This document shows, piece by piece, positions 20,647-46,786 of a stretch of 64,000 nt of DNA. A program made the translations under genes and the position numbers. Below the pieces are notes generated by a model. It saw only the letters and a program-made list of their open reading frames with translations. It did no database searches and had not been told where the DNA came from. Source of the DNA: Schmidtea nova (taxonomy: Eukaryota). Location: contig CM097883.1 in assembly GCA_044892505.1 (NCBI GenBank), forward strand, positions 159,836,001 to 159,900,000. Reading direction: 5' to 3'. The first letter of the stretch is position 1, and the number at the start of each line of letters is the position of its first letter.

Positions 20647-21030
20647 TGCTGGTGTGTTGGTTAGATTGACAACTGAGATCATTAGGATTTTATATGTTAG
20701 GGTGATCTCGCCAACATAAAAACATTCCCCCGCTGACACCCATGATGTATCCCTAACTACTCATCATGTTGGTGCTGTGTCAACGTTGTGAAATGACAAG
20801 GCAGGTGAGCAACCTTTCGGCTACTATTCCCTTGTTTATTCACGGGTCCGCCACTACCGATAGAAGGTGTCTGTGGCTTTCTTTCGGTCCCACTTATGCT
20901 CTTTTCTATTGTCCTAGGGTGATTTAATCTTAGCGCATCTGCAGTTTTTCATGAATCCGGGTTTTATTTATATTCAATTCTCAGACATTCCACACACAAA
21001 CAAGACAAGTCAAATCATTCGTTTTATACA

Positions 21031-21036
21031 TTTATT
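21031..21036 (-). promoter_or_regulatory. Putative polyadenylation signal in the LTR
   Basis: AATAAA overlapping the ORF-B stop, followed ~25 nt later by GU-rich TTGTCTTGTTTGTGTGTGG. Confidence 0.55.
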
Positions 21037-21613
21037 TATAGTTTAACAATACAGAGGGTCGGATTACATTTAGTAGTTCTTGCTCGGATAGACCACTGAG
21101 CAAGTCTACCTCTATTCCTACGCGATCTGCATATGCGCGTCTCTCCCTGCGCTTTTTCGCTCCCAAGCGATTCCGTCTCTTTGTCCGTTTCGAGCCTTCC
21201 AGAATTATTGGGGATGTTGTGGTAGTTGTGATTGGGATGGTTTCTATTTCCGTTTGGGTACTTGTTGTCCTCGATATTGTGTCCACCCACCGATTAAAGG
21301 TGCTAGCCCTGATCACTGGGCGTAATTGCTCGGTGATGAACTCCTGGGTTGATGCCCTCAAGTAATTCGACAGCTCCATCTTTAGTGCGGCGACCTCCCT
21401 AGCTTGCTCGTCGATTGTTCGTTCCGCCCTGTATCTGGCTTGTAAGATGGCTTTAACCCTCTCCGGATTAAACCATGTTGTCTTAATTCGCTGGTGCTCC
21501 TCATTCAGTTGTCTCAAGCGACTCTCGAGGACACGAGATCGTGCTCTATGTTCGTGTGACTCTTGCTTGTAATTTCGATTGGGATTTTCGTCCATATCTG
21601 AGTAATGTATCAT
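21032..21613 (-). CDS. LTR-encoded ORF-B, 193 aa, coiled coil plus Arg-rich motif
   Basis: Open in the 3' LTR; KRTKRRNRLGAKKRRERR basic tract; homologous pseudogene at 6863-7398. Confidence 0.75.
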   Translation of the reverse strand: MIHYSDMDENPNRNYKQESHEHRARSRVLESRLRQLNEEHQRIKTTWFNPERVKAILQARYRAERTIDEQAREVAALKMELSNYLRASTQEFITEQLRPVIRASTFNRWVDTISRTTSTQTEIETIPITTTTTSPIILEGSKRTKRRNRLGAKKRRERRAYADRVGIEVDLLSGLSEQELLNVIRPSVLLNYK

Positions 21614-21790
21614 TAACTAGGATATATATGCATTGTTTGGTTTCTCAGTCATCATTTTATGGTTAAACAACTGCATTCCTATCCTTACTCATTCCTCATA
21701 CATCCCAAATCAAAACAAAAACCCTTTTAAATGGATACATATATTTGCGATTCACAACAGATATTCGTTTATTGGGTGTTGTCCTCGTGA

Positions 21791-22423
21791 TCAATTGTAT
21801 GGTCGTAACTCTTGATTGGCCGGGTTCTCGTCTCGGCGAATCCCTGTTTCATGGTATAGTTCGGGGGCTGGATTCCAACTCAGTTTGTTTTGATAAATGA
21901 ACACCTCCCAGAGGCGAAGGTCTTTGGGCTCGGGGTGTTGATCCACGGAAACACTGCCTGGGGCATTCGGGTAAACGAAGACTTCCCCAGTGTCACCACA
22001 CCGAGGCCTGTCTAGCAGCAAATACCCGAGTTGGCCGAATGCCTGCCCGGTCATCATTCCGGTGCTTAGTACCCAGCGGGGTTGTCGTGTTTCATCTACA
22101 AATTGATAGAACCATCTCTTGTACCCATCTTTGGTGGGGTTCGGGGAGGGCGTCCAATCGACATCACCTTCCCACCTCAGCTGTAGTTGGAATGCACAGG
22201 CGGGAATACTCGCCGCGGTGCTCATATGGGTCCTTGTCCATCGACGCAGGTGTCTACGTGCGGAGTTGAAAATTTGGCGTGGGGCCTCCTTCTCTCCTTG
22301 GATTTCGGTAGGTACTTTTGGTGTGACGAGGGAGCGGATGCGCCGTTTCCTCCGTAGAATGTACTCCTCTAATTTGACGGTTAGGGGTTCTGTCGCATCC
22401 TTTACGAGATATTCTGTTTTCAT
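21791..22423 (-). CDS. LTR-encoded ORF-A, 210 aa, unknown function
   Basis: Open 210-codon frame in both LTRs, GC-richer than its surroundings, with RRKRR, its own AATAAA after the stop and CAG-A-ATG at the start. Confidence 0.65.
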   Translation of the reverse strand: MKTEYLVKDATEPLTVKLEEYILRRKRRIRSLVTPKVPTEIQGEKEAPRQIFNSARRHLRRWTRTHMSTAASIPACAFQLQLRWEGDVDWTPSPNPTKDGYKRWFYQFVDETRQPRWVLSTGMMTGQAFGQLGYLLLDRPRCGDTGEVFVYPNAPGSVSVDQHPEPKDLRLWEVFIYQNKLSWNPAPELYHETGIRRDENPANQELRPYN

Positions 22424-24092
22424 TCTGTCCCTCTGAAATGGAATTTTAAGTTAACTGACAGACTCTATCATCGACCATCGATATTTATGTCGATCAACCT
22501 ACTTGGTTTATTGTTCTACTGGCCGTAGGCCTTAGTAGTTCGTACATAATTTACTAGACTATTGGTCGCAGTGTTCAAGTAGGTGGTGAATTTACTTGGG
22601 TGAGTTGATACACTCCGCAATTTCAGTCGGTTTTAGCTATGCTCATTTAGGCTGATTATTTACAATCAGATTTTTCGTTACATTAAATTTCTCATCGATC
22701 ATTTTTATTCATCAAACCTGGTTCATTCACAGAGCATCATTAGCAACTATCAAGATTCACGTCGCGGGAAAAATTTTTTGTAATCCCTTAGTCGACTACT
22801 GTGTCGAGAAACGCACTAATTTTTATCTACTATCGGGTCTGACTTTTCATGCCCTTTGTGGGTTATATGTGTATATCTAACAGCTCATTCGGTTCACTAC
22901 TGTGCTTTGGTGCTAATGTCTTTTGACCGCGATGCTACGCTTTACCTACCTCAATTCTCGTTGATTTTTATGTACTAGCACTCCTTGAAGGTACACCCCT
23001 CGTCACGGTACCTCATGCATATATTTTCCCTTGCGAAATGAGCTTTACCTCGATTTTATTTATGACCATTAACTATCACTCGATACCCTATCATCGTGAT
23101 GTATAACGTTTATACTAGGTCATCTCTACCTTGATTTAGTTCCTGATCATTAGGTCTTACTCGATACCCTATGTGCATTTAACCCCTTCCGCTTTCCAAA
23201 TATTTAGTACACCTATAGTCCCGCCGCATCAGCACCTCACAACCGAAAGGTTGTGTTGCGCTGAGAGGCCCGAGAATCCGTCAGGCTGTTAGGCCTCCGG
23301 AAAACCTTATGGATTTTAATATGATTAACAATTATAATTATGAGGGTTTAAAGTAACAATCCAACACACAACAATTACCTTTTATTTTTCCTTCAAGTTG
23401 ATTTTACAATGTTCTCAGTGCTCAACTGCAAGATACACTTGGTAAAAATGACATTGTCAAATACTGATTTGACTTCAGTATTTATACTGAACCGGTGTTG
23501 TTGGTTAGCCAATCAGCATCGAGTATGTGTGTATGTTTGCTTCATTTTTCATGTTGTCGGCTTTTTGCTGCCTAACTTAACTTGCCGATTTGTTTGGTTA
23601 ATCATGCGGTAAGTTTTTCTTAGTCATCAATTTATTTTATTTTATTTTTGTTTTAGGTCTTTGGTGACATCCGCCCACGCGCTGTCATATTCCAATTTTA
23701 TCTGCTTCGCATGAGTGAGTTTTGAAGATTTTTTGTTGTTTTGATTTATATTTTATTTCTTTTAGATGTTGCCGCCTATTTTGTTACGCTTTGGTGTTGG
23801 TAATTTATTTTGTTGTTATTCTGTATTTAATTTATTTTATTGATTGTATATTATTTTCAGATGCTGCTCGATTTGGCTGGCCCAACATCACTCGGGGTCC
23901 CCTAAAATTGCGTCCCGCAATTACATGCATATACCTACATCAACATACATAAAAAGTTCGTGACAGAACTTACATGCAAAACCACATAAGGTGGTAGCTT
24001 TTATACACATTTATACAAAGTCACACATTGTCATTGTCATGTTTATATTGTTTATACACAGTTTCATGTTTCTGGCTCATAGGGGTTGATTT

Positions 24093-24617
24093 TCAGGTCC
24101 TTTCACTGGTTGACTGCATTTCGTATCGGGCTTGGATTTGTCGTAGATGACTTCTCATCCTTTGTTGGGTTTTTGCTTCTCTTTTGGCGCATCTACACAT
24201 TATCGTTTGTTGTTGTTTGAGGCTTCTGATTCGGTACAGGGTATAGGTAATCACGATGATCAGGATGATTGTCAATATTGTCATTGTGACTATTCCAACG
24301 ATGATCCATCTGTTTCGGATTTCGGATTCGATTTGGGTTTGACCTTTGATTGGCTTTAGGTGATCTTGAAATGTTTTATGGATTTCTCGGATCTTCTCGA
24401 TTTGACTGAATAGGGTTTGTAAGGGTTTGCGATGATCATGACTGATCCTCATTTGTCGGATTAATTGTTTCAAGTCTTCTCTGACTTCGTTTAGTTGTTT
24501 TTCGATCTCTTGGGATATTTCGTTTGACAGGGTTCTTTGGATTTCGGTTGTCGAACAGTTCATGATTATTGCTGTTAACATAATCGTTAGGATTGATAGG
24601 ATTTTGAGCCAGATCAT
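24093..24617 (-). CDS. Cargo ORF, 174 aa, predicted type I membrane protein
   Basis: N-terminal hydrophobic signal, coiled-coil ectodomain, TM WIIVGIVTMTILTIILIIVITYTLY, basic tail. Confidence 0.75.
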   Translation of the reverse strand: MIWLKILSILTIMLTAIIMNCSTTEIQRTLSNEISQEIEKQLNEVREDLKQLIRQMRISHDHRKPLQTLFSQIEKIREIHKTFQDHLKPIKGQTQIESEIRNRWIIVGIVTMTILTIILIIVITYTLYRIRSLKQQQTIMCRCAKREAKTQQRMRSHLRQIQARYEMQSTSERT

Positions 24618-24690
24618 TTCTGATTATTCTACTGATTAATACAGGTTACATCGATTTGTACATTTTTACACACGGATTTTTCGCCTCTTT

Positions 24691-25851
24691 TTACACATCC
24701 GTCTCCTCTGGTTCATGGAACCCTTCGTCTTGGAGTTCCATTGGTGGTGGTGGTATAAATGGTAACCACACCACTATACTTCTCCACATTGCAATTTCAT
24801 CTTGATACGTTCGAGAGATTTGTATCTCTTCATCTAACAGATACTCCATATAGTCTGATTGTTCGCTTAGAGTTTCGATTTGTCTTTCCATTTCTTCCAC
24901 TTTCCTCTTCAGGGCTTCTGTTTCTGTTGGTCCGGTTTCTACTTCTATGGTTTCTTTCTCTGCTTTCAGGGTTCGTATTTGTTGTTTCAGTTCCTCGTTT
25001 TCTTTCGTCAAATTCGTTATGTTTTCCTCGTAAGCTCGGTTTGATTCCGCATGTCTTTCTTTCACTGCTTTCAACTCCATTTTCTTTTGAGTCACCACCC
25101 CTTGATAACCATTTACATCTCTTTCCAGACTTTCTTTTTCCCTGATCAACTTTTGTCTTTCCACTTCCTCTTTCTGTCTAATGCCTCGCATTTCTCCATT
25201 TATCATCTGTATTTGCCATTGCGTTTTCTTTAGTTCCTTTGCCTGTTCTCGAATAAATCGCTGTCGTTTTCGACTCCATTCTTTGTTTGCTTGTTCTTGT
25301 CGTTTTCTCTGTTCCAATTCCTCTTTCAATTCGTCTATCTCTTGATATAATTTCCAATCTTTGCTGTATGCTGTCCTTCCGATTATCTCTTTGGCTTCTT
25401 TATACACTCGTTTCGACTCCATCTTCCAATGTCTCGCTTGAGTTTTGATTGCTAGTATTTTTACCTCCATTTTTTCCTCTTGTTTCTCCCTCTCTTCTCT
25501 TCGCGTTTTCTTCATATTTTTATAATGTTCTGCTTGTTTTCTCATCAATTGATAGGTCTCTTCTATCTTCTGTCGACTTCGTACATTCGTTCCTTCAAGC
25601 TTCTCTATTTGTGTTGTCAGTTGTACTATCTCTTTATTCACTTCCTCGAGTTCCAGTTGATATAACTCCATTTGTCTTTCGCATTTTAGTTTCTCGTAGA
25701 AATTGTTTGTCATTACTTCGTTTAATTCTCTGGTTCTTTGTTCCACTTCCATTTTACATCTACTTTCGATTTCTCTTTCTATTGCTTCTCGTTCGTTCGC
25801 CATCTCGTTTCTCGTTTCATCTTCGATTACATGTTCATTTGCGTTTTCCAT
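24691..25851 (-). CDS. Cargo ORF, 386 aa, long coiled-coil protein ending -ETDV
   Basis: E/K/R/Q-rich heptads over most of its length; C-terminal PPPP and EETDV. Confidence 0.8.
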   Translation of the reverse strand: MENANEHVIEDETRNEMANEREAIEREIESRCKMEVEQRTRELNEVMTNNFYEKLKCERQMELYQLELEEVNKEIVQLTTQIEKLEGTNVRSRQKIEETYQLMRKQAEHYKNMKKTRREEREKQEEKMEVKILAIKTQARHWKMESKRVYKEAKEIIGRTAYSKDWKLYQEIDELKEELEQRKRQEQANKEWSRKRQRFIREQAKELKKTQWQIQMINGEMRGIRQKEEVERQKLIREKESLERDVNGYQGVVTQKKMELKAVKERHAESNRAYEENITNLTKENEELKQQIRTLKAEKETIEVETGPTETEALKRKVEEMERQIETLSEQSDYMEYLLDEEIQISRTYQDEIAMWRSIVVWLPFIPPPPMELQDEGFHEPEETDV

Positions 25852-25940
25852 TCTGTAATTTACAAATTTACGCTTGTTATACTATATGTTTATTGTTGTC
25901 GTCGATTTTTACACTTTATTTACAGGGTCGTTCACTCTGA

Positions 25941-27353
25941 CTACTCTAACCATCCTTTCGTTGACTTCGTGTTCATCACTGTTGTACTTGTTTTCTTTTC
26001 GATCTCCAACTCTACATATAAGTTGTCGTCGTACAACATTTCCCACATTGTTTGGTGTGGTATGAATTTTGGTTCTCCAGTCGCTAATGAACATTCTGTG
26101 GTTGGTCTTTTGTAAGCTTCGTGCTTACCATCAATCTTGAATACTCTCGCTATTGTTTCTTTCGAGTTTCTCACTCTCATTATAGCCTTTGTTTCTAGTG
26201 GCCATTCTAATATGTCGTCGTAACCACCTTTACACAACGCAAAGAATAATGACACATGCGTTTCCTTTCCTGATCCATCTCCATTTGGATAAATTCTCAT
26301 CCGGACTTTGTATCCGTTTTTCCACAGATAGAATGGTGGACTTGTTACCGACACTTGACTTCCTGCTTTTGCTGCTGTGAACTTTTCGTTGAAGTTCTTG
26401 ATTTTCCATATATATGGTGCAACAGGTAAACTCTCGATATCCTCTGCATCTCGCACCCACATTTGATGTCGCACGTTTACTTCTTTTACTAGCGTCTCTA
26501 TGACTTTGATTTTCTCCATCATTTTCTCTCTGGTGAGCTCGAATAGCTCTCTTGTTTCTAGTAACAGCTCCGTCATTATTCTCTGAGATTCGATTTCTTT
26601 TCCCAGCTTCTGTATGGTTTGTTCCATTCCGTTCAAATTTGCTGTTAACATCTCGGCGTGTTGTACTGTTTCCGTTTCCAAATGCTCTTTCATCTCTTTG
26701 CTCGTTTTCTTTACTACACATCCTTGTTTACTCCATACGCACTTTCTTGGTCTTGATTCGCACTGTTCCCAATGTTCTCTCAACATCACTTCTTCTCCGG
26801 TTCCGCAATTACTTGGACAAATTCCTCTGAATTTTCCACACACTTTCTCTTCTGCTACGTTGAGATGTTCTGTTTCGATTATCTCTCTTGTCTCTCTTTG
26901 TTCGCAGTATTGACACTCTATTATCTCTGCTTTGCACTCATCTTTGTGATTTTTCGACTGCTTGATGGTTATCGTCTGTTGACACTTTTCACATATCGCT
27001 TTCTTGTTTTCACATTTCCCCAGATGTTGTCTTAACTCGATTATTGGTCCTTTCCATTCACATGGTTGGTTTGTACACTCTGTTTTTATCTTCCAGATCT
27101 CCTTTTGGATTGCTTTGTCTGGTTTCGTCTCGTTGATTAGTAGTTTATCGTCACACTCTGGACATTTTCTTGTCTCACTTTCACTGATTATTTGCAATAT
27201 ACACTTGGTGCACATCCTGCATCCACATTCCGTTTGTCTCGGTTTTAACAGTAAATTTTTACACTTTACACACGTCACATTTACTCCCCATTGTCGATTC
27301 TCTCCTCTTAGAATCTCGATTGTTTGGTAATCTGCTTCGTTTTCTGCTCTCAT
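25941..27353 (-). CDS. TRAF: Cargo ORF, 470 aa, TRAF-like protein (RING, TRAF zinc fingers, coiled coil, MATH)
   Basis: RING CVKC..KPRQTECGCRMCTKC..CPEC; Zn finger CTNQPCEWKG..HLGKC; MATH YIWKIKNF...SPPFY...GYKVRMRIYPNGDGSGKETHVSLFF...YDDILEWP. Intronless. Confidence 0.93.
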   Translation of the reverse strand: MRAENEADYQTIEILRGENRQWGVNVTCVKCKNLLLKPRQTECGCRMCTKCILQIISESETRKCPECDDKLLINETKPDKAIQKEIWKIKTECTNQPCEWKGPIIELRQHLGKCENKKAICEKCQQTITIKQSKNHKDECKAEIIECQYCEQRETREIIETEHLNVAEEKVCGKFRGICPSNCGTGEEVMLREHWEQCESRPRKCVWSKQGCVVKKTSKEMKEHLETETVQHAEMLTANLNGMEQTIQKLGKEIESQRIMTELLLETRELFELTREKMMEKIKVIETLVKEVNVRHQMWVRDAEDIESLPVAPYIWKIKNFNEKFTAAKAGSQVSVTSPPFYLWKNGYKVRMRIYPNGDGSGKETHVSLFFALCKGGYDDILEWPLETKAIMRVRNSKETIARVFKIDGKHEAYKRPTTECSLATGEPKFIPHQTMWEMLYDDNLYVELEIEKKTSTTVMNTKSTKGWLE

Positions 27354-27443
27354 TCTACAACAATATTTACATCAATTTCCCCATGTTTTTGATTTTTTCT
27401 GGTTCTTTATTTACACGTATTTACACAATTTTCCGCTTATTCA

Positions 27444-27794
27444 CTATACATCCTCAGTTGAATCTGGCTCTGGATACACGTCTATCTCATTTACAATCCA
27501 GCTCGTCCAACTATCTGGTATCTCTTCCTCTTCATGTCTCGTTAATCTGTCAATTTCTTCTGCTTGCCAGTTGTTCACTTCATTCAATGTTCGGTTCTCG
27601 TTCTGTAATTCGTTTATCTGTAGTTGTTGAATCTCGATTTTGTTCATTGCTTCGAAATTACAGTTATAACTCTCGGTTAATAATTGCGTTTTTGCCGTCA
27701 ACTGGCTCTGTAATTCATTTACTGTTCTGGCTAGCAGGTCACATTGTACTTTCCATCTTGTCATCATCGACATCTCTGTGGTTCCTTGATTCAT
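27444..27794 (-). CDS. Cargo ORF, 116 aa, short coiled-coil protein
   Basis: Heptad pattern; acidic C-terminus YPEPDSTEDV resembling the end of the 386-aa ORF. Confidence 0.65.
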   Translation of the reverse strand: MNQGTTEMSMMTRWKVQCDLLARTVNELQSQLTAKTQLLTESYNCNFEAMNKIEIQQLQINELQNENRTLNEVNNWQAEEIDRLTRHEEEEIPDSWTSWIVNEIDVYPEPDSTEDV

Positions 27795-27916
27795 CGTTTT
27801 TCTAGATTATATACATCATTCTCTTTTTCTGTTTTTATGTTTTATAATATTTATACCCATACGTATACGGTTATGCATTGGTTTTTACACTATTATTTAC
27901 ACTCATATTCCACCCT

Positions 27917-30900
27917 CTATACAACTATTACTGGTTTTCCTTCGTACAGTTCCTCGTCCTCGATCTGTACCCACATCTCTTCGTGTTTTGATCGTCTTTT
28001 CAGCTCTTCTCGTACTTCTTTTGGTAGTTTTATGTTGTAATTCGTGACCTTTACGTCTGGCCATTTTACTGCTATGGTCTTATTTCTCATGCCATATCTC
28101 CAACATACTATCATGATCGTTATCAGCGGTATACACCCTATGAATACTCCCATGCTGATTAATCCCATTATTGTTTTCCCAATGCTCATCTTCGGAGTTT
28201 CACTTTGGTTTGTCATCACGCCATATTGACCTTTCCATTCTGCTTCCCATTGTTCATATTGTTGTTGTCTCTGTCTGACTTCTTCGATCACTTTCTCTGG
28301 TTCCCATCTTTCTTGTTGGTTTGGTAATTTTTCCTCCTTCTCGTTTTGTTCTCTCTTCTGACTAAATTCTCGGAATTCTAACTTTTTGATTCTCCTCTTT
28401 ATCGGCGTGTAATAGGTTTCGCACCTTTCTTGTGGATTTCCTTGTGCGTCCACTTCTTCGATTGCACACACTTCGTATTCTGCGTTTGTTTTCAACTTCC
28501 TCATTTCTACCTCGATTATTTCTCCTTTATCATTTGATGTCTTTTGACAGTTTCGTGGGGACTTTCCCATACTGTTTGGCATTAATGTCCAACAGATTTC
28601 TAGGACCTTTTTATGGATCTTCCATATTATCAACGTTGTTGATTCCGGTTCTTTTTCTATTGTCGTCCTTTCTGTTGTTACCTGTTGAACTCCTTGACTG
28701 TTGGCTGTCGTGGTTCTTCTTGACTTTCTTTTCCTCTGTCGACTTCTTCCCATTTCGATCGTTCTTGTTCCGTTAATTTGCTCTGGCGTCTTGTACAGTT
28801 TGCACTCCAGGCTTCTTTGTATTATTTCTCTTATTCTTCGGATTACGCAGATTTCATATGCTTGTCCGACTTCGAATCCATTTAGTTGAAACGGGATTCC
28901 TCGTTCTCTCGTTCTGCATTGCGGTATTACGTTGCTGGTCGGTACTCCGATGTATTTTCTCCAACACATCCCAATTGTTCTCCGACCAATGCTTTTTATC
29001 TCCACGGTTACTACTTCATTCGCAATCGTTTCTTGATCTTGTTTCTTTCTTTTTGGGAACTCAATGATCTCCTTTGCTTGGAACACTTTACACTCGCTTG
29101 TTCCTGGTCTGTTTCCGTTTGCTGCTTTTTCCATGAGACATAGTTCACATTTTTTATCTGTCTCTATTTCTGTTATTTCGATTTCTTCATTTGTCTCTGC
29201 TTCCCGACTTTCTCTTGTCTCGCTGATTCCAATTACTTCATTATTTCGTCCCCAACATCTTCCATTCGTTGTTCGTTGATCTTGGATGTTTACTAACGTC
29301 ATCACGCTGATATCTATGTCTTCCATGATTCTCTTAATGAGGATTAATATTAATGCTACACATATCAGTTCTGGTTGGAATGTTAATTTTCCCGCTGGAT
29401 TTTTGGTTATTCTTTCTTTCTCTGTTCGGTTTCTGATTCCTTCTTCTGCTTCCGATTGATTCTTCCCTTTCTCCGATTCCACTTCTGTTCTTCTCGTTGT
29501 CTCTTCACTTCTTTTCCCAATCCATTTCTGTATCTTCAGCGCTTCCGTTGCTTTGTATAATTGACAGGCAGTTACTTGAGGTGCTTTTGGTTCTCCTCTC
29601 TGCTTTACTGCGCATATTATGTATGACTTTTCTTTCTCCAACCCTTTGATTTGGATGACGTCTCGCTTCAAGTCTGACAATATACATTTCAGCGTATCGT
29701 TTTTCTTCAGGTTTTCTTTCCAGCATATTCTTTCGTATACTTCGTTTCCTCTGATTATTTCCAGCGTGACGTATTGTTTCTTGGCTTCGCCTTGTCCGAT
29801 GATCGTTATCAATATCGCAATACACAACATTTCCGGTCTCAAAAGTAGACTTCCTGCTCGTTTTCCATAGTTCGTACTTTCGTCTTTTGTTCCTCTGTTT
29901 TCTCGTTCTTCGGCTTCTTCCTTTTTGTCGTTTCTCGTTGGCTTCGGTTCTTCTTGTCTTTCTTTTTCATTATCCTCCGTTCTTTTGTTGTCATTGTCTT
30001 CGTTGTTCTTTTCGTTGTTACTTTTGTCGTCGAAATCTTTGTAACCACCCCCTGGTCCTTTCGAAATGTCGTCCTCGACATTAATTTCTTTAATCAATCT
30101 TTCATACGCTTGAACCGCGAGTGTGCTAGACTCGAATTCACGTATTTCCATATCCTTGGATGGTTCTATGTTTTCTAGTCCACTTTGCTTGATCGTTTCT
30201 TTGGCATTTGCCCATTCATTCACATATTTTCTGAACAAGTCTTTCCATCTTCCCGTTCGTTCCTGTTCTTTTGGGTTGTTCGTAAATTTCAAATCTCTTC
30301 TCTTCAAGAATTCTTCTACTATCTCTGGCTTTTTGTGTCTTAGTAACGCGCTTCTGATACACCAATTCTGATTCTGTTCCATATGGTCATTGATCTTGAA
30401 CACTGGTTCCTTGGTGATCGGATTCACCCATGTTAGTAATGCTCTCGTTTTCTCTATGTCGTGTATCATTACCGTCAGACTGAAATTCTTTACGTTATTC
30501 GCCAGATATTCGATATCATCTTGTTTCTTGATGGACTTTATGAACTTGATCATCTCGAAGTTGTTCCACTGTATTGCGATATCTATGATGGAATTATTCT
30601 TTCCATTTTTCTCTTCGATTTTTGCTCCTGCTTCGTATAACTCGTTTAGCACTTTCAACTTCGTCTTCTTCCTTGCTGCGATTATCATGATTGTATCTCC
30701 ATTATCATCAACCGTATTCATGTCTGCTTCGCACTTGACCATCGCTTTCGTTATTTCTAGCGCTTCGTTTTCTTTCTTTCGACGTAATGCCCAGTGTATC
30801 GGCAATCTCCCATCCTTTGATAATAGGAATGTTACTGGCATTTGATTTTTGATCGTTTCTATGTCACTCTCGTTATAATCTCCTTGTGCGTATCTGTGCA

Positions 30901-33900
30901 CTTTCTCTGTAATTGCTCCTAGTATCTCCAACGAGTTTTTATTCTCCTTGAATTCTGATAGTCTTTCCTGCGTTTTTGCTACGATTGCGTCTAGTCTCTC
31001 TTGATTATCAGCTTTTGCATTGAACAACACTGCTTTGCTTCTTATTCGCGTTTGCATCTGTTTCATTCGTTGGTCTTGATACACTGCTTGTCTGAAGAAT
31101 TGTCCATACTTCAATGCTTCCATCAGCTCTTTATATCGCTTGCTTATTTCTTTGTGCTGCTTTTGGATGTCATAAAAATGTTCGAAGCTCATATCCGGAT
31201 TCCATTGCTTATCGCACCATTTCTTGATTAATCCGAATAATTCTTTCTTTCTGTCTTCCAACTTGTATTCTCTTGGGTTCTCGCTGACCCGTAGCGTATC
31301 TCTCGCTATTAACACTGCAAGTGTTTTTGGATCGTATGTTACTTCTAGTAGATGTTTCAGTAACGCATTTTCTCCCTTTGTGAATACTTCATTACAATCT
31401 ATGACCCACGAATCTCCTTCTGGTCTTTTCCACTTTAGCAATATCCTCCAGGTTTTACTGTTCTTTACCCCGATTGCTTGTTTCATGATCGATCCTCTAG
31501 TTAGTTCATCGATTTCCCACGTGGCATTTTCCGTAATATACTTCAGTATTCGGTGATTCGCTCTATCAATTGCATGATTCAGGAACGTTCGTCCTTCTTT
31601 ATCTTTTGCCATCCAACTCGATCTGGTGTTTCCGAATAGCTCGACTATTTCCTCATCTCTTCCATGAATCGTCATCATCATAAGTGGAGTGATTCCTTCC
31701 CAATTCACTTTGTCAATTTCTCCTCCACCTTCGAGTATCATCTCTACGATCTCTTTCACTTTTTCGTTCCCACTGTGCTTGATTGCATTGTGCAACGCGG
31801 TGTTACCGTCTTTGTCTTGTAGATTCAATGTTTGAGGGATTTCCTCTAGCAGCGTTCTTGTTATTGGATGTGCTGTTCTATCCTTCGCATAATCCATTAC
31901 ATTCTTTCGAACTTCTGACAGTATATTGAAATCGTGCCACCATTTCCATTCTGGTATGATTTCTCTGGTCCTCTTTGCCAGTTCTTTGATGTTTATTGCT
32001 TCTCTTCGGTTGTCTTCTAGACTTGTTTGCAGCTTTTGTTGTACTCGCAACATATTAATTCTCGCCGTCTGTGATCTTGTCATCACCCTTTTCTCTGGTG
32101 ATAGAGTTGCTGTCTTTGGTATTTTTCTGCATCGACATGCATTCACGTATATTGGTCTTACCAATGGATTGTTCACCAATCGTACTCGCACATTGTTTTC
32201 GTTTACGGTTGTTATTTCGTATGGCCCTTTGCCTGGTCGTTGGAGTTTCTTGACCGTACCGGGTATTATCTCTGGTGTCTCGATTATCACCCAATCTCCA
32301 ACTTTTAAATCATGTGCTTTCACATTCTTTTTCTGATCATGTAGATCCTTATAACTCTCTTGATAGAACTTGATGTTTAGTTCCGCCGTTTTCCAGATTT
32401 CTTGCATTCTTTCTTTGAACTTTGTAACGTAATCGTCAACCTCCATGTATTGTGATAATGGTGGTTGGTATTCTAAATCGATCGGTAAGTTGCAATCTCT
32501 TCCGTACATCAGTTGAAATGGACTTAGCTTTGTTGCCGCATGTATTGACATTCTATATGCCATTAAACACAAGTTGATGTATTCGTCCCAGTCAGTCTGA
32601 TGTTTGCTGACGTAATTCGACAACATGCGTATCAATGTTCCATTGAACCTTTCTGTTTGACCGTTCGTTTGTGGATGGTATGGGGATGTTCGTAATTTCG
32701 CAATTCGGAAGTAATTCGTGACTTCGTCTAATATCTCACTCATGAAATTTGTTCCTTGATCCGTTAGGATTTTCTTTGGTGTTCCGTATCTGCAGCATGT
32801 CTCTTCCACCAATATTCTCGCGACTGTTTTCGCTTTTTGATCTGGTATTGCGAATGCTTCTGGGAACTTTGTTAGATAGTCCGTGACTACTAAGATATAT
32901 TGATTCCCCTTTAAACTTTCTGGCAGTGGCCCAACTACATCCATGGCTATCGTCGCCATTGGTTCTGCAGATATTGGCATTGGTTTTAGTGGTGTTTTCC
33001 ACTTCGTTCCGACGTTCTTTCTTGTTGCACAGGTTAAGCAGTTCCTTATCCATTCTTTCACATCATCTTCCATGGTTGGCCAAAAATACTTTTGTCTCAA
33101 TCTCCCGATTGTCTTTTTCGCTGACATATGTCCGCCTAATTTTCCGTCATGATATTGAGTCATGATTTCCTTTCGCCTATTCGCAGGTAAGCACATTAAT
33201 CTCCGTTCTCCATCTTGTATCAATAACCATCCTTTTTCCATCACGTATCTATGTTGGTATTTTTGCATATGTTCGCGCAACGTTTGGTTCTTGCCGAATA
33301 TTTCTATTTCCCTTTCTTTCAGATACTTGCTGATCAATCCCAACTCCTCATCTTCGAGTTGATCCTTCCTTAATTCGCTGAAATCCAGATCTTCCGCTAT
33401 TAGTGCACATATTTTTAGAGCATTCAGGTTCACCAACTCCGGAAATGTAAACCTTGACATGCAATCTGCGTTTGCATTTGCTTTTCCTGCTTTAAACTTT
33501 ATGAATGGCGAGTATTCTTGCAACTGCATTGCCCAACGCATCAATCTACTTGATGATTCTTTATGTTGACCTAACCATACTAGCGGTTGATGATCCGTCG
33601 TGATATATATTTCATGACCCCACAGTAGGTACTTGAAATGCTTGATTGCCAATATTATCGCATAGGCTTCTCTTTCTGTGACTGAGTAATTCCTTTCATG
33701 TTTTCTGAACGTTCGACTATAATATCCGATTACTCTCTCTTTGCCTTCTTCATCAAATTGGCCTAGTACTGCTCCTGCTGCATATCCACTTGCATCTGTT
33801 GCCAACAAAAATGGCTTCTTAAAATCTGGATGGACCAGTATTGGTGCTGTAATCAGCTTATCTCGTAATGTTTCAAATGCTGCTTGCTGTTCTATTCCCC

Positions 33901-36900
33901 ATATAAACGACACATCTTGTCTTACCAATTCTTGCATTGGCTTTGATATTCCTGCATAGTCCTTGATGAATTTTCGATAATATCCACACAATCCCAAAAA
34001 TTCTTGTATTTGAGTTACTGTCTTGGGTGGTGGACATTCTTTAACTTTCTCGATATTTCTTGGATCTGGTTCTTTTCCTTTTGCTGATACAATGTGACCT
34101 AAGAATGTCACTTTCTCTTTTGCCCAATCGCACTTTGACGGCTTCAATTTCAGCTTCCATTGCCTTAATTTCACGAACACATTTCTGATGTCTTGCAAGT
34201 GATCCTCGAATGTTGCGGAGTAGATCAATAGATCGTCGATGTACACCATGCATTGTTTTATGCCATGTGTTACGAAATTCATGCATCTCTGGAATGATGC
34301 TGGCGCGTTTGTTAACCCAAACGGCATTTTCTTGAATTGGTACAGATCTCGTCCGATTGTAAATGCTGTCTTCTCTTTATCCTCGTCTTTCATTTTGATC
34401 TGCCAATATCCGCTTTTTAAATCTAGTGACGTGAAATAAGCTGCTCCTTGTAACGTCAACAACATTTCGTTTATGTCTGGCAGTGGGTACGTATCTCTTT
34501 TCGTAACTGCGTTCAATCGTCTGTAATCGATACAGAATCTCTGAGTTCCATCCTTCTTTTTCACCATCACCACTGGGAATTGCCAGGGTGAGCAACTAGG
34601 TTCGATGACCTCTGCATCTAACATCTTTTGTACCTCTTCTTCTGCCACTGCTTTTTGAGCTTCTGCCAATTTGTATGGTCGTAATGCTATTGGCGTTTCG
34701 TCCGTCAACGGTATCGTGTGTAATGTTACATCACAGGTTCCCAGATCTAAATCTGATGCTGCGAATATATCTTTATATTCCATCAACAGTTTCTGTAACT
34801 GTTCTTTTTGTCGTTCGTCCAACAACACACTGTCGATTTTCCATGGTAATTCGCCTTTGCTTTTCTCATTCTTGTCTGGTATTTCGATTTCGGACATGGG
34901 TGTCAATTTACCCAATCTCTCATTCTCGTATATTATCTTGTCCTCTTCGTCGAAATTTACCAGATTGATCGGTATTTCTCCTTCTTGATTTATCGTAACC
35001 AATTCTCTTGCCATTGGTAATTCTTTCTTTGCTTCGAACTTTTTACTTGGTTCGAATATCATATCTCCTTTGATTGTTGAATCGATCTTGACATAGCACA
35101 TCATTTCGTGTCTCGCTGGCACTACTATTTGTTCCGCACTTGCCACTTTAACTTTCATCCTGCAGATTTTTCCTGTTCTATCTTTTAGTTTCATTGCTCC
35201 TAGATCAATTACGATTTCCTTGAACAGGTCGGGCATCAGGTCAGTTCCAATAATACATGGTACACTCAGCGATGGTATTACAGCGATGTACGTGTCGATT
35301 TCTGCACCTCGATGCTTAATTTTTACAAACCATCTTCCGGCTACTTCTACTGTCTCTTGACTGCACGCGATTACATGTACGTTCGTCTTCTCAATTTCTC
35401 CTTGGTTTTTCTCGGGTATATAGTTAATGTCGATTGCCGAAATATTCGCGCCTGTATCGATCATTGCTTCAATTTCTCTTCCGTTTATTTCTACGGTTGT
35501 TGTTAAGATTGGTCCCATGTTTGTGGACATAACCGCTATCGTGTGCGTGTCTTCCAATGAGTCTACGCTTTTACCTCGTTTTACTTTGCATCCTTCTGGA
35601 ATTATCGGGTATATACTTGTCATCGGCATCATCTGCATCATATTCGGCTTTGCTTTATATATAGGTTCGTTATACATTGACTGAGGTGGAGCGCTGTATC
35701 TCCAATTCTCAACTGTACTCTTTTCGTTGTATTGTGGAATCTGGTTTATATTCGCTTGTCCTCCTCGATCGTCATCATCATCGTCATCATTACTTGAATC
35801 ATCTTGTGTTCGATATCCTCTCACTCTTTCCCATAATCCTTTCCTTTCCTTCTTCAGTTGTCGTCTTGCTTGTTCATCTTGCATTATCTTTTTGAATTTT
35901 CTTCCGACATCTTCGTTAGTTCCTTTCATTTTTGCAAGTATCTTCAACAACCTCTTTATTCGATGTATGTCTTTCGAGTGTCCATGTAACACCATCGTTT
36001 TCGCAAGGAATGGTAAAAACCCTACTACCATTTTCCAATTCACTTTCTTTTCTCTCTTGTAGATATCGAAACACGCTAACATTTGCGTTATTATCACTCT
36101 GACGATTTGTATTATCAATATAACACCCAGTATTCCAGCCATCATTTGTCCAAATATCAGGAATCTTCCCCACATTGCCTTCATCATATTTTCTGTGGCC
36201 TTCTTGAAATGTGCCGGTGACAACAACAGTTCGTAATTCGGTCCTTCTCGATAATTCGTTCCTCCCGTTATCGTTACGATATTTGACAGTAATGCTTCTC
36301 TTCTTGCCGGGAATAATATATTCTGTCTTGCTGCTTCCAGATCTTTTGGACTATAGATTCCGTTGTTTGAGACATCTACGTCACTGAACTGTCTATCCTT
36401 TGACAACTGCATTAGCTCAAATTCTCTTGGTGCTAATACTTCAGTTCTTCCTGGGAACATGACCCATTTGCCATCTGGCTTCTGATAAAGCGGTCCGTAC
36501 GCGTTACTACAGTTGAATGGATTTGGTTCAAAACCTGGTGGATTGATGATTCTCGTCACCGGTTGAACGTATCGTACTTTTCCTTTGTAATCGATTTCTA
36601 GTTCGTTTGTACATTGTCCAGGTTTCAACTGCGTTGTTGCTGCTAGCGATGCGTGTGTCTTTTCGCAAATGTATACATACATTGCTTCTCCGACCACTCT
36701 TCCGAAATGTCCTTCTCTCAGTGGTAATAACGGCATCGCGCTATCTGGATTCGTAATCGCTACGGCCAACTTTGTCTTCAATATTTCTCGATTCAGTATA
36801 CAATCGTTATTTATCAGATCATAGTACACTTTTTGCAATGAGGCTTGACCTCTATGGAATAAGAAATCCATTTTATTATTCACATACAAGTGTAGCTTGA

Positions 36901-39900
36901 TATCCATTGTGTCGATCTTGGGTTTCGCATTCGGCACTTCTTGTTTCGACACGTATATTCCTGGATAGTTTGTTTCGTATACTGTTGTACTGCACTTAAG
37001 GGTTGCTTTCCCTTTTATGAATCTCATGCCTACATCCTGATTTGTGGTTATCAACACTGTTGGTGTGGTTCTCATCTCTATTCGTTTTTCTCTATGATCT
37101 GGTTTCAATTGTCTTTTATTCTCTAAAGCCTCTTTGAGATGTTTTGCTCTAGCTTTGTCATCATCGTCTTCTTCTTGGAAGGTTTTTCCTTGAATTTCGT
37201 CGAACTTTGCTCCTTGTAGCAGTTGTAATTGACATTCGTTCACTTTTGGTTTATACACCAAAGTTGACATTCCCGTTTGACACATGCTTCTGTCAATTTT
37301 ACACATGGATAACGTTTTCATTTCTCCTGTTGTTGGTTCGAAGAATGCTTCGTAGCTTTTCAGTTCGACTATATACGTATCCATTACCACTAAGTTGGTT
37401 GCAGGTGCTCCAAATATCGGATAGGTTTCTCCTTGACAATATCCTTCTCCTCCCGTAATCCGTCCTGCTACATAATACGTCTGCTGCAACATCATTCCTG
37501 GCTTTCCTTTTATCTTGATTTTGTCTCTCGTTGTCACTTCTCCATGTTTGAATAATGCTTCACAGTCTTCTCCTTGTAACACGATTGGTTCTCTTTCGGT
37601 TCCTGGCATGACAATTGCTGAATAATGTCCTCTACCACAATAGAATGCGAATCTCGTCTTTTGCACTTTGCATTCATTCACCATTGTCTTTATTAGTTCT
37701 GCCTCTTGATATACGTGGTACCATTGTTCTTTTTTGATCTCTTTCAATTCTACTGGAGTTGCATCTTTGCATTGCTCCGTACCTCTCAATGAGTACTTTT
37801 CTCCCAACTTCATTTGATCACAGTCAAATACTTCAAATGTTGTTACACCCTCTGTGCTTAACAACCATACTAACATCATCATGATTATCGAGTTTAAATT
37901 CAACGTCGATCTCCCGTTTCCTTGCATCGTTTGTCTATTCTCCATTTCTCTCAATACTCCTTCGAGTTTCTTTCTCATAACGTTAGACCCTTCTTTTGTC
38001 TGGTTCTCTTTTATGAACTTTTCCCATCCTCCTTTTCTGAGGATATATGGTTCAATTTCCTTCTCGATAATCATCGCCGTATTTTTAATATGTCTTCCCA
38101 TCGGACTTGACTTCGGGCTTCCTCGGCTTAGCGTTAACAAATTGTATATTGTATACGCGATTGCTACCAGATATTTGCTGTCCGTCTCTGCTCCGTTAAG
38201 TAGCCTTTTTATCAACATCGTGGTTCCTTGCCAATCTAGATGATTCGATTTTGTTTTTGCCTTTATCAATTCTGGCATAATCGGTGCTATTGCATTGTGT
38301 AGCATCCTTGCCTTTGTACTGGGTTCGTTTATTCGCCACAAATTCTTTAATTCCGGGTCAATTATTGCTAACACATCCATTATCGTTTTGGTGAGCCATT
38401 CTTCTCCTTGGCAGACTTGATTCTCTTCTTTTCCTCTGATTTCTGCGATTTTATCCAGTTTCTTCAAGCAAATCTCCCATTGCTCTTGTCTCCTTTCTTC
38501 CCTTGTCTTTGGGATTGTTGTTGCTGGATCTATCTTTGGTCTTCCTCTTGGTCGTTTCTCCATTCCCGTTCCGGTTTCTACAAATCTCGCTGCTCTTCCT
38601 GTTTCCTCTGTAACATCTCTTCCTTCGTTCGCTCGCTGTTCTAACCATCTTTCCATTTCTTGAGTAAACTGTGGTTGTTCTTGTTCGTCTTCCGAATCGT
38701 TTACCATTTCTATGACTACCTCCTGTTCCACTCCTTGATCGTCGATTTCTGCTGGTGACGTTATTGGCATCTCTACTATTCTGTCAAAAATGTTCGCCGT
38801 TGGTTTTTGAGTCAGTTTCGTTAATTCTTCTATCGCTTCGTCACTGTCTGTTAGTATCTCATCCACGTCATACGCTTCTGGCGGTGTTCTCTCTCTCGTT
38901 TTTATTGGTGTTGTCCTTGCTTGTCCCGAACTTGTTCCTGGGGTCATTGTTGACTTCATCGGACTTGGTGTACTCATGCTTCCTTTCGCTTTCTTTTCCT
39001 CTTTAAACTTCAGTGGTTGACCCACTATCTGTGCTACTGTTAACGTATTCATTAGATCCAATTGCACTGGTGTCAGCCAGATTTCCAAATTATTATCCAA
39101 CGATCGTCCTTGATGTTGCAGGTGGAATGGTAGTTCGTACATCAGTTTCTCTTTAACGCTTTTCACTTTTTCTGTTAGCATCACCCGAAACTCTTCTTTT
39201 CTTTGATTCGGATACATTATCCTCAAATGTATTTTCTGTGGCGTTTCTTCTGCAAACTCTTTGTTTCTCCACTTTTTTATTACATCGTCTAGTTGCTCTG
39301 GACACCACTCGTTAACTCTCTTGTATTCTGCTATCGCTTTAGCTACTTTTCTCAAGTTCGTTATGTCTTCTCCATTTGTGATTATGAATTGTGCTAAGCC
39401 TTTTATTGTTTGTCTCTTTCCCCGAGTATTTCCTCTCAATAGCTCGATCAATTCACTCGTTTTCTGTTTCTCCAATTCTGCCCATATTGCTGCAGTTTCT
39501 GGTCCGTCTAAGTCCGTTGGTAATAACCTCCTTGTTACCATACATATCCGTTTCGTATTCCGTTCGTGTCTGTCTTCTCCTTCCGGATCTTCTTCGTACA
39601 CGCCTCCTTTCACTTTCCAACATTTCTCTTTGTTATCCCATTGTTTCTCTACTGGCGTCAATCGTCGTCTGTTAAGATCCAATTCTCCCAAGATTGTCTC
39701 CCATTCTGGCTTCATCTGCCAGTTCCGATAGATTTCTACTATCTGCCTCAGCTTACGCATAACGTCCTCTTGTCGTTTCTTTTTCCTTTCCTCATCTCTT
39801 GGTGTTGCTCTTTGCACATCATCCATTCTGATGACATGTATTGTCTGATAATTATCCCATATGCCGATTTTATACGCTCGTCTTTCATCACGTTCATTCA

Positions 39901-42208: not shown

Positions 42209-42244
42209 GTTTCTTTTTCCTTGTTCTTCATCTTCTGTCGTTTT

Positions 42245-42802
42245 TCACATTACCGCCGTAATTCTCATGTCGTTCATTGCCATATGCAATTCGAATAGGT
42301 TGGCTGCCTCCAACGCTTCATCTACCGTTTTACATCCTTTGCATCCCACTTGTGCTCTGATGTCAGGTCTCCTGAGACCTCGTACGAATAACGCTGTCAT
42401 CAATTCTTCGTCTACTGGGCTTCCTCTATTGAATGCCAGTTTCGCCAACTTTCTTAATTCACTTGCGTACACCGCATTTGACTCATTTCTCCTCTGTTTT
42501 CTTGCTGAGAACTCATCGAATGCTTCGTTCAACACTTTATTTATCCCAAACGTCTGTTGGAAGAACTCCTTGATTGCTTCCCACGTTCTGGGTGGATTAC
42601 TTCCCGATCTCTTCTCAATATACAGATCCAATGCGCTATCTTTCAAGTATAGCGGGATTCGATTCGCTAACGTTTCTGCACTCCATCCGCATATATCCAC
42701 GAATATGCCAAATTCCTTCAGGAACGTGTCCAATCTACTGGCGTCTCCATTAAATGGTTCGCCCTTGAATTTTTCTCTTAGATCCTCTCTGTGATCACTC
42801 AT
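42245..42802 (-). CDS. gag: Gag capsid domain of giant element, in frame with the polyprotein across one TGA
   Basis: Retrotrans_gag-like (PFNGD...TWEAIKEFF...RKQRRNESNAVYASELRKLA...LFVRGL). TGA at 42245-42247 is followed by 12 sense codons and then the polyprotein ATG. Confidence 0.88.
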   Translation of the reverse strand: MSDHREDLREKFKGEPFNGDASRLDTFLKEFGIFVDICGWSAETLANRIPLYLKDSALDLYIEKRSGSNPPRTWEAIKEFFQQTFGINKVLNEAFDEFSARKQRRNESNAVYASELRKLAKLAFNRGSPVDEELMTALFVRGLRRPDIRAQVGCKGCKTVDEALEAANLFELHMAMNDMRITAVM

Positions 42803-43678
42803 CCCGATTCCACTATCTTGGAATACTGTACTAGTTTTCTTTACTTCTAGTTCACCACTTGTTTCTGAATTCGACTCTTCTTCTTCGCTACTCTCTGTTT
42901 CGTTATCTCTTGATTCGCTTCTTGTTCTGTTTTCCCTGACTAGTTCACTGTCTATCGTCTCTACTTCGTTTTGTACTTCTAGATCTTCTGGGGTTTCTTC
43001 TTGATTCTCTTTATTACTCGAATTGTCGCTGATCTCTACTTGTTTGTTCTTTTGTTGCTTAGGCTTGTTACCTGTTCTTGTTCTTTTTGCTGCTTTTCTC
43101 TCTGCTTCCGTTAAGATTGGTATTATACCTGATCTTGTTTCTCGTCCCTCAATTTTGTCTATTCCTCAACTTCTTATATTCTCAATTGATTTTCTACTCC
43201 GCTTTTGTTTTGCTTCTTCTTTGCTTTGTTTCCTTTGATTGCTCTGACTGCTAGATTGCTTTGAATTGCTTGATTGATTTGTTTCCTTAAAACAAATAAT
43301 CACTTACACGATACGTCCCCGTTATCGTGTTTCTCGTCCCTCTCACGGGTGTAGTCATAATTCATGAAGATCCCCATTTTTCCCATTTCCCTTGATTTTA
43401 AGTCTATTTAAATTATCTATGCAGTCGCATCAATTATCTATTCTTTATCAAATACACCAATTACTTTTCCCCAGTTCCCCAATTACTTTGTCGCTCAGCG
43501 CTCTTATTATCCCCTTTACTTTTCTCAGGCTTCTCTGGCTCTGAGTTCAAATCCCCCTTATCTGTCTACTACTCTATTTCCCAACTATTCGCTTTATCTC
43601 CTATTCGCACTACGTTTACTACTTCATTTCAATTCTCATCTCTACTCACCTTTACTTCAACTGACATCTCTCGTTGGC

Positions 43679-44141
43679 CTGCTGGGTTTTCCAGTCAGCG
43701 CTTTTAATCTCACCTTTTATCTCGAACTCTGTTTCTCTCAACTTCACTCATTATCTCATTAGCCTGCTGGGTTTTCCAGTCAGCGCTTTTAATCTCACCT
43801 TTTACTTCTGCTTCATTATTCTCGACCTCAATTGTCGTTTCATTAGCCTGCTGGGTTTTTCCAGTCAGCGCTCTTATTATCCACCCTTTATCTCTTCACT
43901 GTCGACTTTTAACTGCTCGTTACTCCGATGATCATCACTTTTGACCTGCTGGGTCTTCCAGTCAGCGTCCTCAATTTTACCACTTTATTATCGTTCACTT
44001 TTATTCTCTCGATCTTTCCTGATCGTTATCATTGACCTGCTGGGTTTTCCAGCTAGCGTCTTTACCACTTTACTGTCCTAACAAACCGGTTTCATTTTAT
44101 TCCCATCGAATCTCATGGTCTGCTGGGTTTTCCAGTCAGCA
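43679..44141 (-). repeat. Six spaced copies of a ~22-nt hairpin motif in the 5' leader
   Basis: Plus-strand CTGCTGGGTTTTCCAGTCAGCG starting at 43679, 43764, 43848, 43946, 44037 and 44120. Confidence 0.9.
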
Positions 44142-44468
44142 CCCTCCACTTACTCACTTTACTTTGCTACTCCTCCTTGTATGCATACTTTAACATCATT
44201 AGGCCACATAATCAGCTTTACTCGCATTTATCAATACCCAGGTGCGCACCTTCAACTCTCTCGTTATTAATTCGGTTTCTTTCAACCCTTATTCCTCATT
44301 ACTCGCTATTCATTTTCACTATTCATCATTTATCCTCATTATTATTTATTCATCTCCATTATCGCTTGTTGATCTTCACTATCCGGATAGTTTTATGCGT
44401 AATTTAGTCCTCATCTGCCTCACTTCGTCGTCTTTCTCGTGGGCTTTTACTCAATATTTTATTTCGAA

Positions 44469-44753
44469 CGAGAACTATGCTCACTGCTGAGAACTATGCT
44501 CACTAACGAGAACTATGCTCAATGACGAGAACTATGCTCAATGACGAGAACTATGCTCAATGACGAGAACTATGCTCACTAACGAGAACTATGCTCACTG
44601 ACGAGAACTATGCTCACTAACGAGAACTATGCTCACTGACGAGAACTATGCTCACTGACGAGAACTATGCTCACTGACGAGAACTATGCTCACTGACGAG
44701 AACTATGCTCACTGACGAGAACTATGCTCACTGACGAGAACTATGCTCACTGG
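44469..44753. repeat. 19-bp tandem array, 15 copies, with degenerate copies to ~45090
   Basis: CGAGAACTATGCTCA(C/A)T(G/A)A x15 (285 bp). Confidence 0.97.
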
Positions 44754-46762: not shown

Positions 46763-46780
46763 ATCCCGGCTGAGCCCCCA
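46763..46780 (-). promoter_or_regulatory. Primer binding site, tRNA-Pro-like
   Basis: Sense TGGGGGCTCAGCCGGGAT, 6 nt after the 5' LTR. Its complement ..ATCCCGGCTGAGCCCCCA resembles the tRNA-Pro 3' end (..TCCCGGACGAGCCCCCA in many animals). Confidence 0.75.
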
Positions 46781-46786
46781 AATTTA

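Follow-up and report, generated by a model that had tools for sequence, protein, structure and literature searches.

The window analysed here is a 64,000-nucleotide stretch of Schmidtea nova DNA (contig CM097883.1, positions 159,836,001 to 159,900,000), and its minus strand carries a giant env-bearing Gypsy element with long terminal repeats (LTRs). The LTRs are 3.24 kb each and contain two open reading frames (ORFs) apiece; with a RING ORF ahead of gag and four cargo ORFs behind the polyprotein, this gives seven accessory ORFs, and the question here is how they may be expressed. The preliminary description of the window had proposed that an acceptor-like YAG before each of them helps to resolve the cassette into monocistronic mRNAs, by spliced-leader (SL) trans-splicing, from a common donor or from mini-promoters.

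The main ORF encodes, in the order of its Pfam domains, zinc knuckles, a Monjiviricetes-type fusion glycoprotein, protease (PR), reverse transcriptase (RT), RNase H (RH), integrase (IN) and ankyrin repeats. The window copy has an in-frame stop at 42245-42247; at least 12 copies spanning this position lack the stop and have gag continuous with the rest of the polyprotein. The 18-mer that looks like a primer-binding site (Table 1) is one that we take to resemble tRNA-Pro primer sites. LTR-ORF210 gave only low-recognition leads in the ESM Atlas, unnamed or DUF7065, and LTR-ORF187 has no family match in Pfam and no named match in the ESM Atlas (best 0.76). LTR-ORF187 contains an Arg/Lys-rich motif, KRTKRRNRLGAKKRRERR, reminiscent of RNA-binding motifs of the Rev/Rex type, and the ORF has homologs in a second family (B, see below) and in a solo LTR in L129.

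By layout and domain order the element is Burro-like. Burro/GYPSM1 elements are giant Gypsy elements of Dugesiidae, about 30 kb long, with a huge polyprotein, env between gag and pol, ankyrin repeats, accessory ORFs and the accessory functions TRAF/MATH, RING and BIR (PMC6431247; for this and all other papers cited, the statements refer to the parts of the text available to us). The window element shares the size of about 30 kb, the position of a mononegavirus-like env between gag and PR-RT-RH-IN in one giant polyprotein, and the ankyrin repeats. Of the Burro accessory domains (MATH/TRAF, RING/BIR, BCL2-like), TRAF and RING are present here, BIR occurs in a third family (E) only, and BCL2 had no Pfam match. 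It differs from the described Burro elements in that TRAF is a separate ORF past the polyprotein, in its four-gene cassette and in the two ORFs inside the LTR (PMC6431247). A search with the TRAF protein returned only proteins that are 24-31% identical. A 28-mer spanning the acceptor of the TRAF-like gene matches the genome 142 times with at most one mismatch, corresponding to about 142 cargo-bearing copies.

Table 1. Features of the Burro-like element, listed in the direction of the minus strand (window positions)
Feature	Positions	Strand	Remarks
Burro-like env-bearing Gypsy LTR element	20647..50028	minus	29,382 nt (29.4 kb); 4-bp target-site duplication CACT
5' LTR	46787..50028	minus	99.75% identity to 3' LTR; ORF187 copy frameshifted near 47719
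TATA box, predicted LTR promoter	49621..49627	minus	3' LTR copy 23480-23486; CCAAT-like ATTGG ~25 nt upstream
Common 5' splice donor AAAG/GTAATT	49514..49519	minus	3' LTR copy: G at 23378; ~108 nt past TATA
Primer-binding-site-like 18-mer	46763..46780	minus
Putative acceptor CAG, RING ORF	46249..46251	minus	3 nt before ATG; at least 17 copies, all 17 listed
RING ORF152	45787..46245	minus	between primer site and gag; AATAAA 4 nt past stop
Gag-Env-PR-RT-RH-IN-ankyrin polyprotein	27917..42802	minus	Pfam domain order
Spacer S1	27795..27916	minus	122 nt; twin TGTA at 27901, 27889; acceptor TAG ending 27802
Cargo ORF116	27444..27794	minus	coiled-coil-like
Spacer S2	27354..27443	minus	90 nt; twin TGTAAATA at 27425, 27415; acceptor TAG ending 27355
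Cargo ORF470, TRAF-like	25941..27353	minus	RING, zinc fingers, MATH
Spacer S3	25852..25940	minus	89 nt; twin TGTA at 25924, 25913; acceptor CAG ending 25853
Cargo ORF386	24691..25851	minus	coiled-coil-like
Spacer S4	24618..24690	minus	73 nt; twin TGTA at 24670, 24662; acceptor CAG ending 24620, alternative CAG ending 24632
Cargo ORF174	24093..24617	minus	two hydrophobic stretches; final gene ahead of 3' LTR
3' LTR	20647..23887	minus	two ORFs inside
Acceptor TTTCAG, LTR-ORF210	22433..22438	minus	5' LTR copy ends 48574; joined to donor in L046
LTR-ORF210	21791..22423	minus	no Pfam match
Putative acceptor CAG, second LTR ORF	21598..21600	minus	2 nt before Met7 of ORF193; 27/27 copies
LTR-ORF187	21032..21595	minus	coiled-coil-like N-terminus and Arg/Lys-rich motif; AATAAA overlaps stop, GT-rich tract after

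Acceptor-like sites ahead of the accessory ORFs

All seven YAG-ATG contexts listed in the preliminary description are present on the minus strand at the positions it gave, with the YAG 1-7 nt ahead of the ATG. The permutation test that it had suggested was run and confirms the excess: seven of seven compares with 139 of the 709 minus-strand ATGs of the element (0.196; P ~1e-5), and shuffles made for each site agree (P = 2e-6 to 1e-5), the 1-7 nt window being that description's post hoc choice. Internal in-frame methionines have a YAG at this distance in 46 of 222 cases, and the gag ATG (42802) has none within 7 nt.

Comparison with other copies upheld five of the seven sites and moved the two in the LTR, where a wrong AG or ATG had been chosen. 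Of 28 copies of LTR-ORF210, a single one has the CAG-A-ATG seen at 22423; the conserved acceptor is the TTTCAG ending at 22433, 9 nt ahead of the ATG, and 25 of the 28 copies have a pyrimidine-rich YAG 4-11 nt ahead of their ATG. The three exceptions are a spliced copy (see below), one ORF extended upstream and one copy with a 20-nt gap. Similarly, TAG-TTA-ATG at 21613 is found in 6 of 27 copies of the second LTR ORF, while a YAG 2 nt before Met7 (21595) is found in all 27. Because of this conservation, the true start is likely Met7 and the product 187 rather than 193 amino acids long.

We compared the internal sites in 30 cassettes that are about 95% identical: the one in the window and those of 29 among the 35 matches with the best scores. 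The four internal AGs had no variant among 240 letters and the pyrimidines at -3 none among 120, compared with 174 of 10,003 other spacer letters, 736 of 9,900 four-fold codon sites and 4 of 960 letters in the twin TGTA cores described below. If the AGs varied as often as other spacer letters, about four variants would be seen; the copies are related, so that this invariance is weak taken alone. The LTRs, of which 33 complete ones were used (the window and 32 of 34 fetched; 82-98% identity to the nearest relative), tell more, since their subtypes are diverged.

The acceptor rule was also applied to two families other than that of the window (family A). Family B was reached through a primer-site search; its identity to family A is about 80% in the RT-integrase region, and 44-49% at the amino-acid level in the cargo. 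Family E was found in a neighbouring stretch of the same genome; the examined copy has no RT and seven cargo ORFs, among them a BIR-RING inhibitor-of-apoptosis protein and genes without a counterpart in family A. The family (L207/L206/L191/L205, G000:C2:121615560-121639067) is a 23.5-kb Burro derivative, and at least 40 of its copies are 96-100% identical over the cargo. A YAG lies 0-7 nt ahead of the ATG in 12 of the 14 accessory ORFs of the two families (background 0.18-0.30; P = 3e-5). The RING acceptor of family B is TTTAG, with a 2-nt gap to the ATG.

That the pattern could be left over from the duplication of one spacer module, or from genes captured as spliced mRNAs of the host, with the cargo translated by reinitiation or not expressed separately, is in keeping with spacers that are alike and homologous across families. 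Against this, the AGs are invariant, acceptors are kept while the surrounding LTR sequence diverges, three of the four window spacers contain upstream ATGs, the identical layout precedes family-E genes without a family-A counterpart, and one copy is spliced. We consider this explanation very improbable.

The LTR donor and a short genomic LTR copy

The TATA box of the LTR is conserved across LTR subtypes and in family B, and its role as promoter is our reading. Of the 33 family-A LTRs, 32 retain the CCAAT-like ATTGG, the TATA box and, 100-125 nt past the latter, a donor-like AAG/GTAATT (variants GTATGT, GTATGG and GTAAAT); no ATG occurs between TATA+38 and the donor in 32 of 32. A TATA box and an AG/GTATG donor are present in 12 of 14 family-B LTRs.

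One genomic LTR joins this donor to an acceptor. In L046/L086 (G000:C3:55206072-55206101), an LTR of 2307 nt, the exon end runs straight into the sequence past the ORF210 acceptor; compared with the nearest full-length relative, exactly 945 nt are gone, bounded by the donor and TTTCAG, with only an AG shared at the joint. The breaks in five further short LTRs are at different places, those of L043, L053 and L056 being at microhomologies of 5-6 nt. Both the donor and the ORF210 acceptor had been noted before L046 was recognised. The simplest reading is that L046 represents reverse-transcribed RNA from which this intron had already been removed, and this shows that the pair works in cis. Hence, the common donor, one of the three routes considered in the preliminary description, is shown for one LTR ORF. 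A pattern search for the ORF210 junction gave two matches, one of them L046, versus two control matches. The 5' LTR of the L046 element was not found; homology ends inside the polyprotein, with none in the next 34 kb. Four read runs were aligned to the element twice, and among the 15 joints listed each time none had GT-AG ends; we take these runs as DNA because their reads extend over the whole element, intron and leader included, and a loose end in them is similar to a library adapter.

HIV-1 is a complex retrovirus with one major donor and many acceptors. The element resembles such viruses in its single 5' donor with an acceptor for each accessory ORF, and as in foamy viruses its donor lies within the LTR, upstream of the poly(A) signal (PMC3694450). 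It differs in being of Gypsy type and not a member of Retroviridae, in having seven accessory ORFs (more in family E), in an R region of probably about 2.4 kb that would contain an intron and two ORFs, and in gaps of 0-11 nt at nearly all sites. For the Rev/Tas-like function of complex retroviruses the only candidate feature here is the Arg/Lys-rich motif of ORF187, a protein without a Pfam family match. Other LTR retrotransposons express ORF3/env from spliced mRNAs (PMC5408684), and C. elegans Cer1 (PMC3315495) likewise has an accessory ORF on a spliced message; those elements have one extra message, unlike the repeated spacer module for four to seven consecutive genes here.

Further observations concern the LTRs and the leader. 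Loci L031-L064 and L002-L030 are about 95% identical in their internal regions and have strongly diverged LTR subtypes with both LTR ORFs open and homologous, which suggests LTR exchange or faster LTR evolution. The leader (43640-44160, minus strand) contains repeats of about 85 nt, with CTGAC followed by CCCAGCAG in the units and AAG/GTGAG donor-like sites in three of them (43798, 43713 and 43649); a 19-nt tandem array lies at 44410-44800. Upstream of the gag ATG (42802), 121 in-frame codons are open (42803-43286, minus strand), and all 15 other copies extending into this region keep them open, one of them with 149 codons and the frame intact. By eye, the roughly 480 nt ahead of gag are free of ATG back to an acceptor-like TTTGTTTTAAG at 43286, and a perfect GTAAGT is found at 43307.

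The twin TGTA motif of the cargo spacers

The four internal spacers measure 73-122 nt, against the 70-120 nt given previously. The preliminary description had also reported paired GTGTAAA(T/A)A in them and a shared GTAAATA. The exact pair is present in S1 and S2 but not in the other two, and GTAAATA is absent from S4, so that the shared core is TGTA. AATAAA is present in two spacers, as described, without enrichment (3 versus 2.8 expected, P = 0.57). TGTAAA occurs nine times versus 1.5 expected, a count that none of 3000 shuffles reached.

In 14 of 15 spacers from the three families, the first TGTA begins 14-20 nt past the stop codon, against a mean of 3.4 and a maximum of 10 spacers in 20,000 rotations, and in 13 of the 15 a second follows 7-12 nt after the first; the distance from TGTA to the acceptor varies between 51 and 230 nt. 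The motif is strongly strand-biased, with 58 TGTA versus 7 TACA and 31 forward GTAAA versus no reverse-strand TTTAC. No TGTA begins 14-20 nt downstream of any of the nine stops examined in RING, LTR and last-cargo ORFs, and several of these have AATAAA within 20 nt instead. Sense-strand matches to UGUAHAUA past the internal stops make up 12 of the 15 first octamers and 18 of all 56 TGTA (P = 2e-9); the Pumilio consensus is UGUANAUA (PMC11182014). Reading TGTAAAT as cryptic donors was rejected, position -1 being T in 30 of 31.

The preliminary description had given RYAAAYA as the forkhead consensus, which GTAAATA fits, and had included mini-promoters among the routes of expression. In this explanation each spacer would be a promoter with forkhead-type sites, and the YAGs would be incidental or part of short 5' untranslated region (UTR) introns; S1 indeed has a conserved GTATGG about 60 nt ahead of its AG, together with TATAAA-like hexamers. 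Forkhead sites, as we understand them, are orientation-independent RYAAAYA sequences that include GTAAACA. The 15 spacers contain no GTAAACA, T precedes 30 of 31 GTAAA, TGTATATA variants occur, the strand bias is strict and the motif keeps its distance to the stop, not to the ATG; in spacers S2-S4 of the window we noticed no TATAAA. Expression from mini-promoters is accordingly disfavoured, and we regard it as no less improbable than the relic explanation. Being tied to the stop and biased to the sense strand, TGTA would be an RNA element linked to termination of the upstream gene and not a forkhead site, and it likely acts on RNA rather than as a promoter.

As to what it does, a PUF-type element or one that escapes nonsense-mediated decay (NMD) takes about half of the probability in our estimate. 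Sites in 3'UTRs need about 15 nt of clearance from the ribosome, and the spacing seen here would place the motif just outside a terminating ribosome. A stop-proximal element (RSE) shields Rous sarcoma virus RNA from NMD (PMC4764554), and the twin motif is like it in being a candidate cis-element right past a retroviral stop with a long 3'UTR behind it. The RSE differs in being 400 nt long and binding PTBP1, whereas Pumilio, whose consensus is given above, normally represses. A weak poly(A) signal bound by CFIm is a more tentative assignment: twin UGUA is what CFIm binds, and the host genome encodes a CFIm25-family protein, while a planarian 3P-seq study reported that poly(A) signals lack an upstream UGUA (PMC5068929). 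Some other role is quite unlikely, and that of a promoter element still less likely.

In S1, families A and B have more in common than the twin motif (27845-27916, minus strand; L124): a purine-rich run past the stop and a palindromic stretch with the GTATGG are conserved too, possibly as a hairpin, a small intron or an internal polypurine tract. In L209 (1000-1450), the CFIm25-family gene of the host appears to start about 190 nt past another ORF of the same strand; its start reads CAG-A-ATG, and the sequence between the two is rich in U. The locus is a candidate host operon for comparison with the A-rich Burro spacers.

Candidate routes to the accessory mRNAs

The explanation that we favour, and consider moderately probable, is that the LTR donor and the acceptor before each accessory ORF yield alternatively spliced mRNAs with a short common leader exon. 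Transcription would start about 30 nt past the LTR TATA box and produce a first exon of about 70 nt, ATG-free in family A, that ends at the conserved AAG/GT. This exon is joined to the ORF210 acceptor, as the one retro-copied LTR shows, and would likely be joined also to the acceptors of RING, of ORF187 and of the four internal cargo genes, where the acceptors are conserved and the partner is predicted. The short gap from acceptor to ATG would drop the upstream ATGs found in most spacers. Past the internal stops, the twin UGUA(A/U)AUA-like motif, 14-20 nt downstream, would likely bind a PUF-like protein; it would act on the mRNA that translates the upstream ORF and may stabilise, repress or help to end this long-3'UTR mRNA. 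The earlier proposal of one acceptor per accessory ORF and monocistronic mRNAs thus gains from conservation, from the test in two families and from the spliced genomic copy, two sites having been misplaced.

Several observations weigh against this explanation. The internal acceptors are A-rich, and the 21.7-24.9 kb that separate them from the donor contain three nearer acceptors as well as several poly(A)-like signals. The junction is represented by one spliced genomic copy, in DNA; pattern searches of low power (about 142 cargo-bearing copies) gave no exon-joined genomic copy at the TRAF, RING or ORF187 acceptors, and a similar low-power search for the family-B LTR acceptor gave one match, unrelated to LTRs. 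Six of 12 predicted family-B leader exons contain an ATG. In the test with families B and E, the misses are S4 of family B, with only AAG in at least 29 copies, and E_S7, with a 17-nt gap; moreover, the second in-frame ATG was used for the two TRAF genes, picked as nearer to the family-A start, and the first ATG gives 10 of 14 (P ~0.002, by hand). The three families share ancestry, so that their spacers are only partly independent.

For the four internal cargo genes taken separately, cis-splicing from the LTR or leader donor has about an even chance, and SL trans-splicing of an operon-like cassette seems rather unlikely at present, mini-promoters or relics taking the remaining probability. The two kinds of splicing may coexist, because flatworm acceptors are often common to both (PMC12582326). 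The corresponding alternative for the whole element, in which the LTR and RING genes are cis-spliced and the internal cassette works as a viral operon, its transcript undergoing cleavage and polyadenylation within every spacer and the next gene receiving a host spliced leader, appears unlikely to us. It needs no introns of 22-25 kb, and the cassette looks like flatworm and nematode SL operons, with same-strand genes about 100 nt apart and an acceptor just before the next ATG (PMC12582326, PMC8629364); the spacers of 73-122 nt match flatworm intercistronic distances and are well below 300 nt. Flatworm trans-splice sites resemble ordinary YAG acceptors (PMC12582326), C. elegans Cer1 has an SL1 trans-spliced mRNA (PMC3315495), and the host has its CFIm25-family protein. 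Several spacers have an AATAAA that shares letters with the first or second TGTA unit, and past the LTR ORFs there is AATAAA/AATATA-TGTAT. The gaps between acceptor and ATG are free in frame, which is compatible with SL use, since only 28% of the trans-spliced mRNAs of S. mansoni have the SL AUG in frame (PMC9851317).

Unlike in SL operons, however, the Burro spacers are A-rich and a functional cis donor lies upstream. With an A content of 0.34-0.64 and no obvious U/GU-rich downstream tract, the spacers differ from the sequence in which the LTR and RING ORFs end. The lack of AATAAA enrichment and the 3P-seq result also speak against cleavage in the spacers, and the motif follows the stop codon, which the clear poly(A)-like signals of the element do not. 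A variant in which a portable module of stop, twin UGUA, acceptor and ATG makes the cargo an SL-resolved operon with cis-spliced LTR genes, and in which genes were added by module duplication (four in families A and B, seven in E), is in our judgement less likely still.

Outside the element, an ORF at 58583-59032 (plus strand) is likely a host exon and resembles the N-terminus of the major vault protein. The flanks of the element presumably contain mariner-, hAT-, Penelope- and small Gypsy-like fragments, judging from their translations.

Among the LTR retroelements known, those of the Burro type are the largest, and planarian tissues deficient in PIWI show their strong derepression (PMC8532177). 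In the available parts of the Burro literature we found nothing on splice sites, an LTR intron or the spacer module, which the original description or its supplements may cover in part, and nothing on how the apoptosis- and ubiquitin-related cargo genes are expressed (PMC6431247). Burro elements and spliced accessory mRNAs are already known (PMC6431247, PMC5408684); new here would be complex-retrovirus-style expression in a Burro-like family.

Overall, our analysis gives exact positions for donor, acceptors and starts, with one ORF start corrected, and so reduces the question of cargo expression to read mapping. It suggests that an element of the Gypsy lineage has reached the splicing style of complex retroviruses, with a foamy-virus-like donor in the LTR. 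The stop-anchored twin UGUA element, kept in three families of an animal with cis- as well as trans-splicing, is a compact candidate for stabilising, repressing or ending retroelement RNAs with long 3'UTRs.

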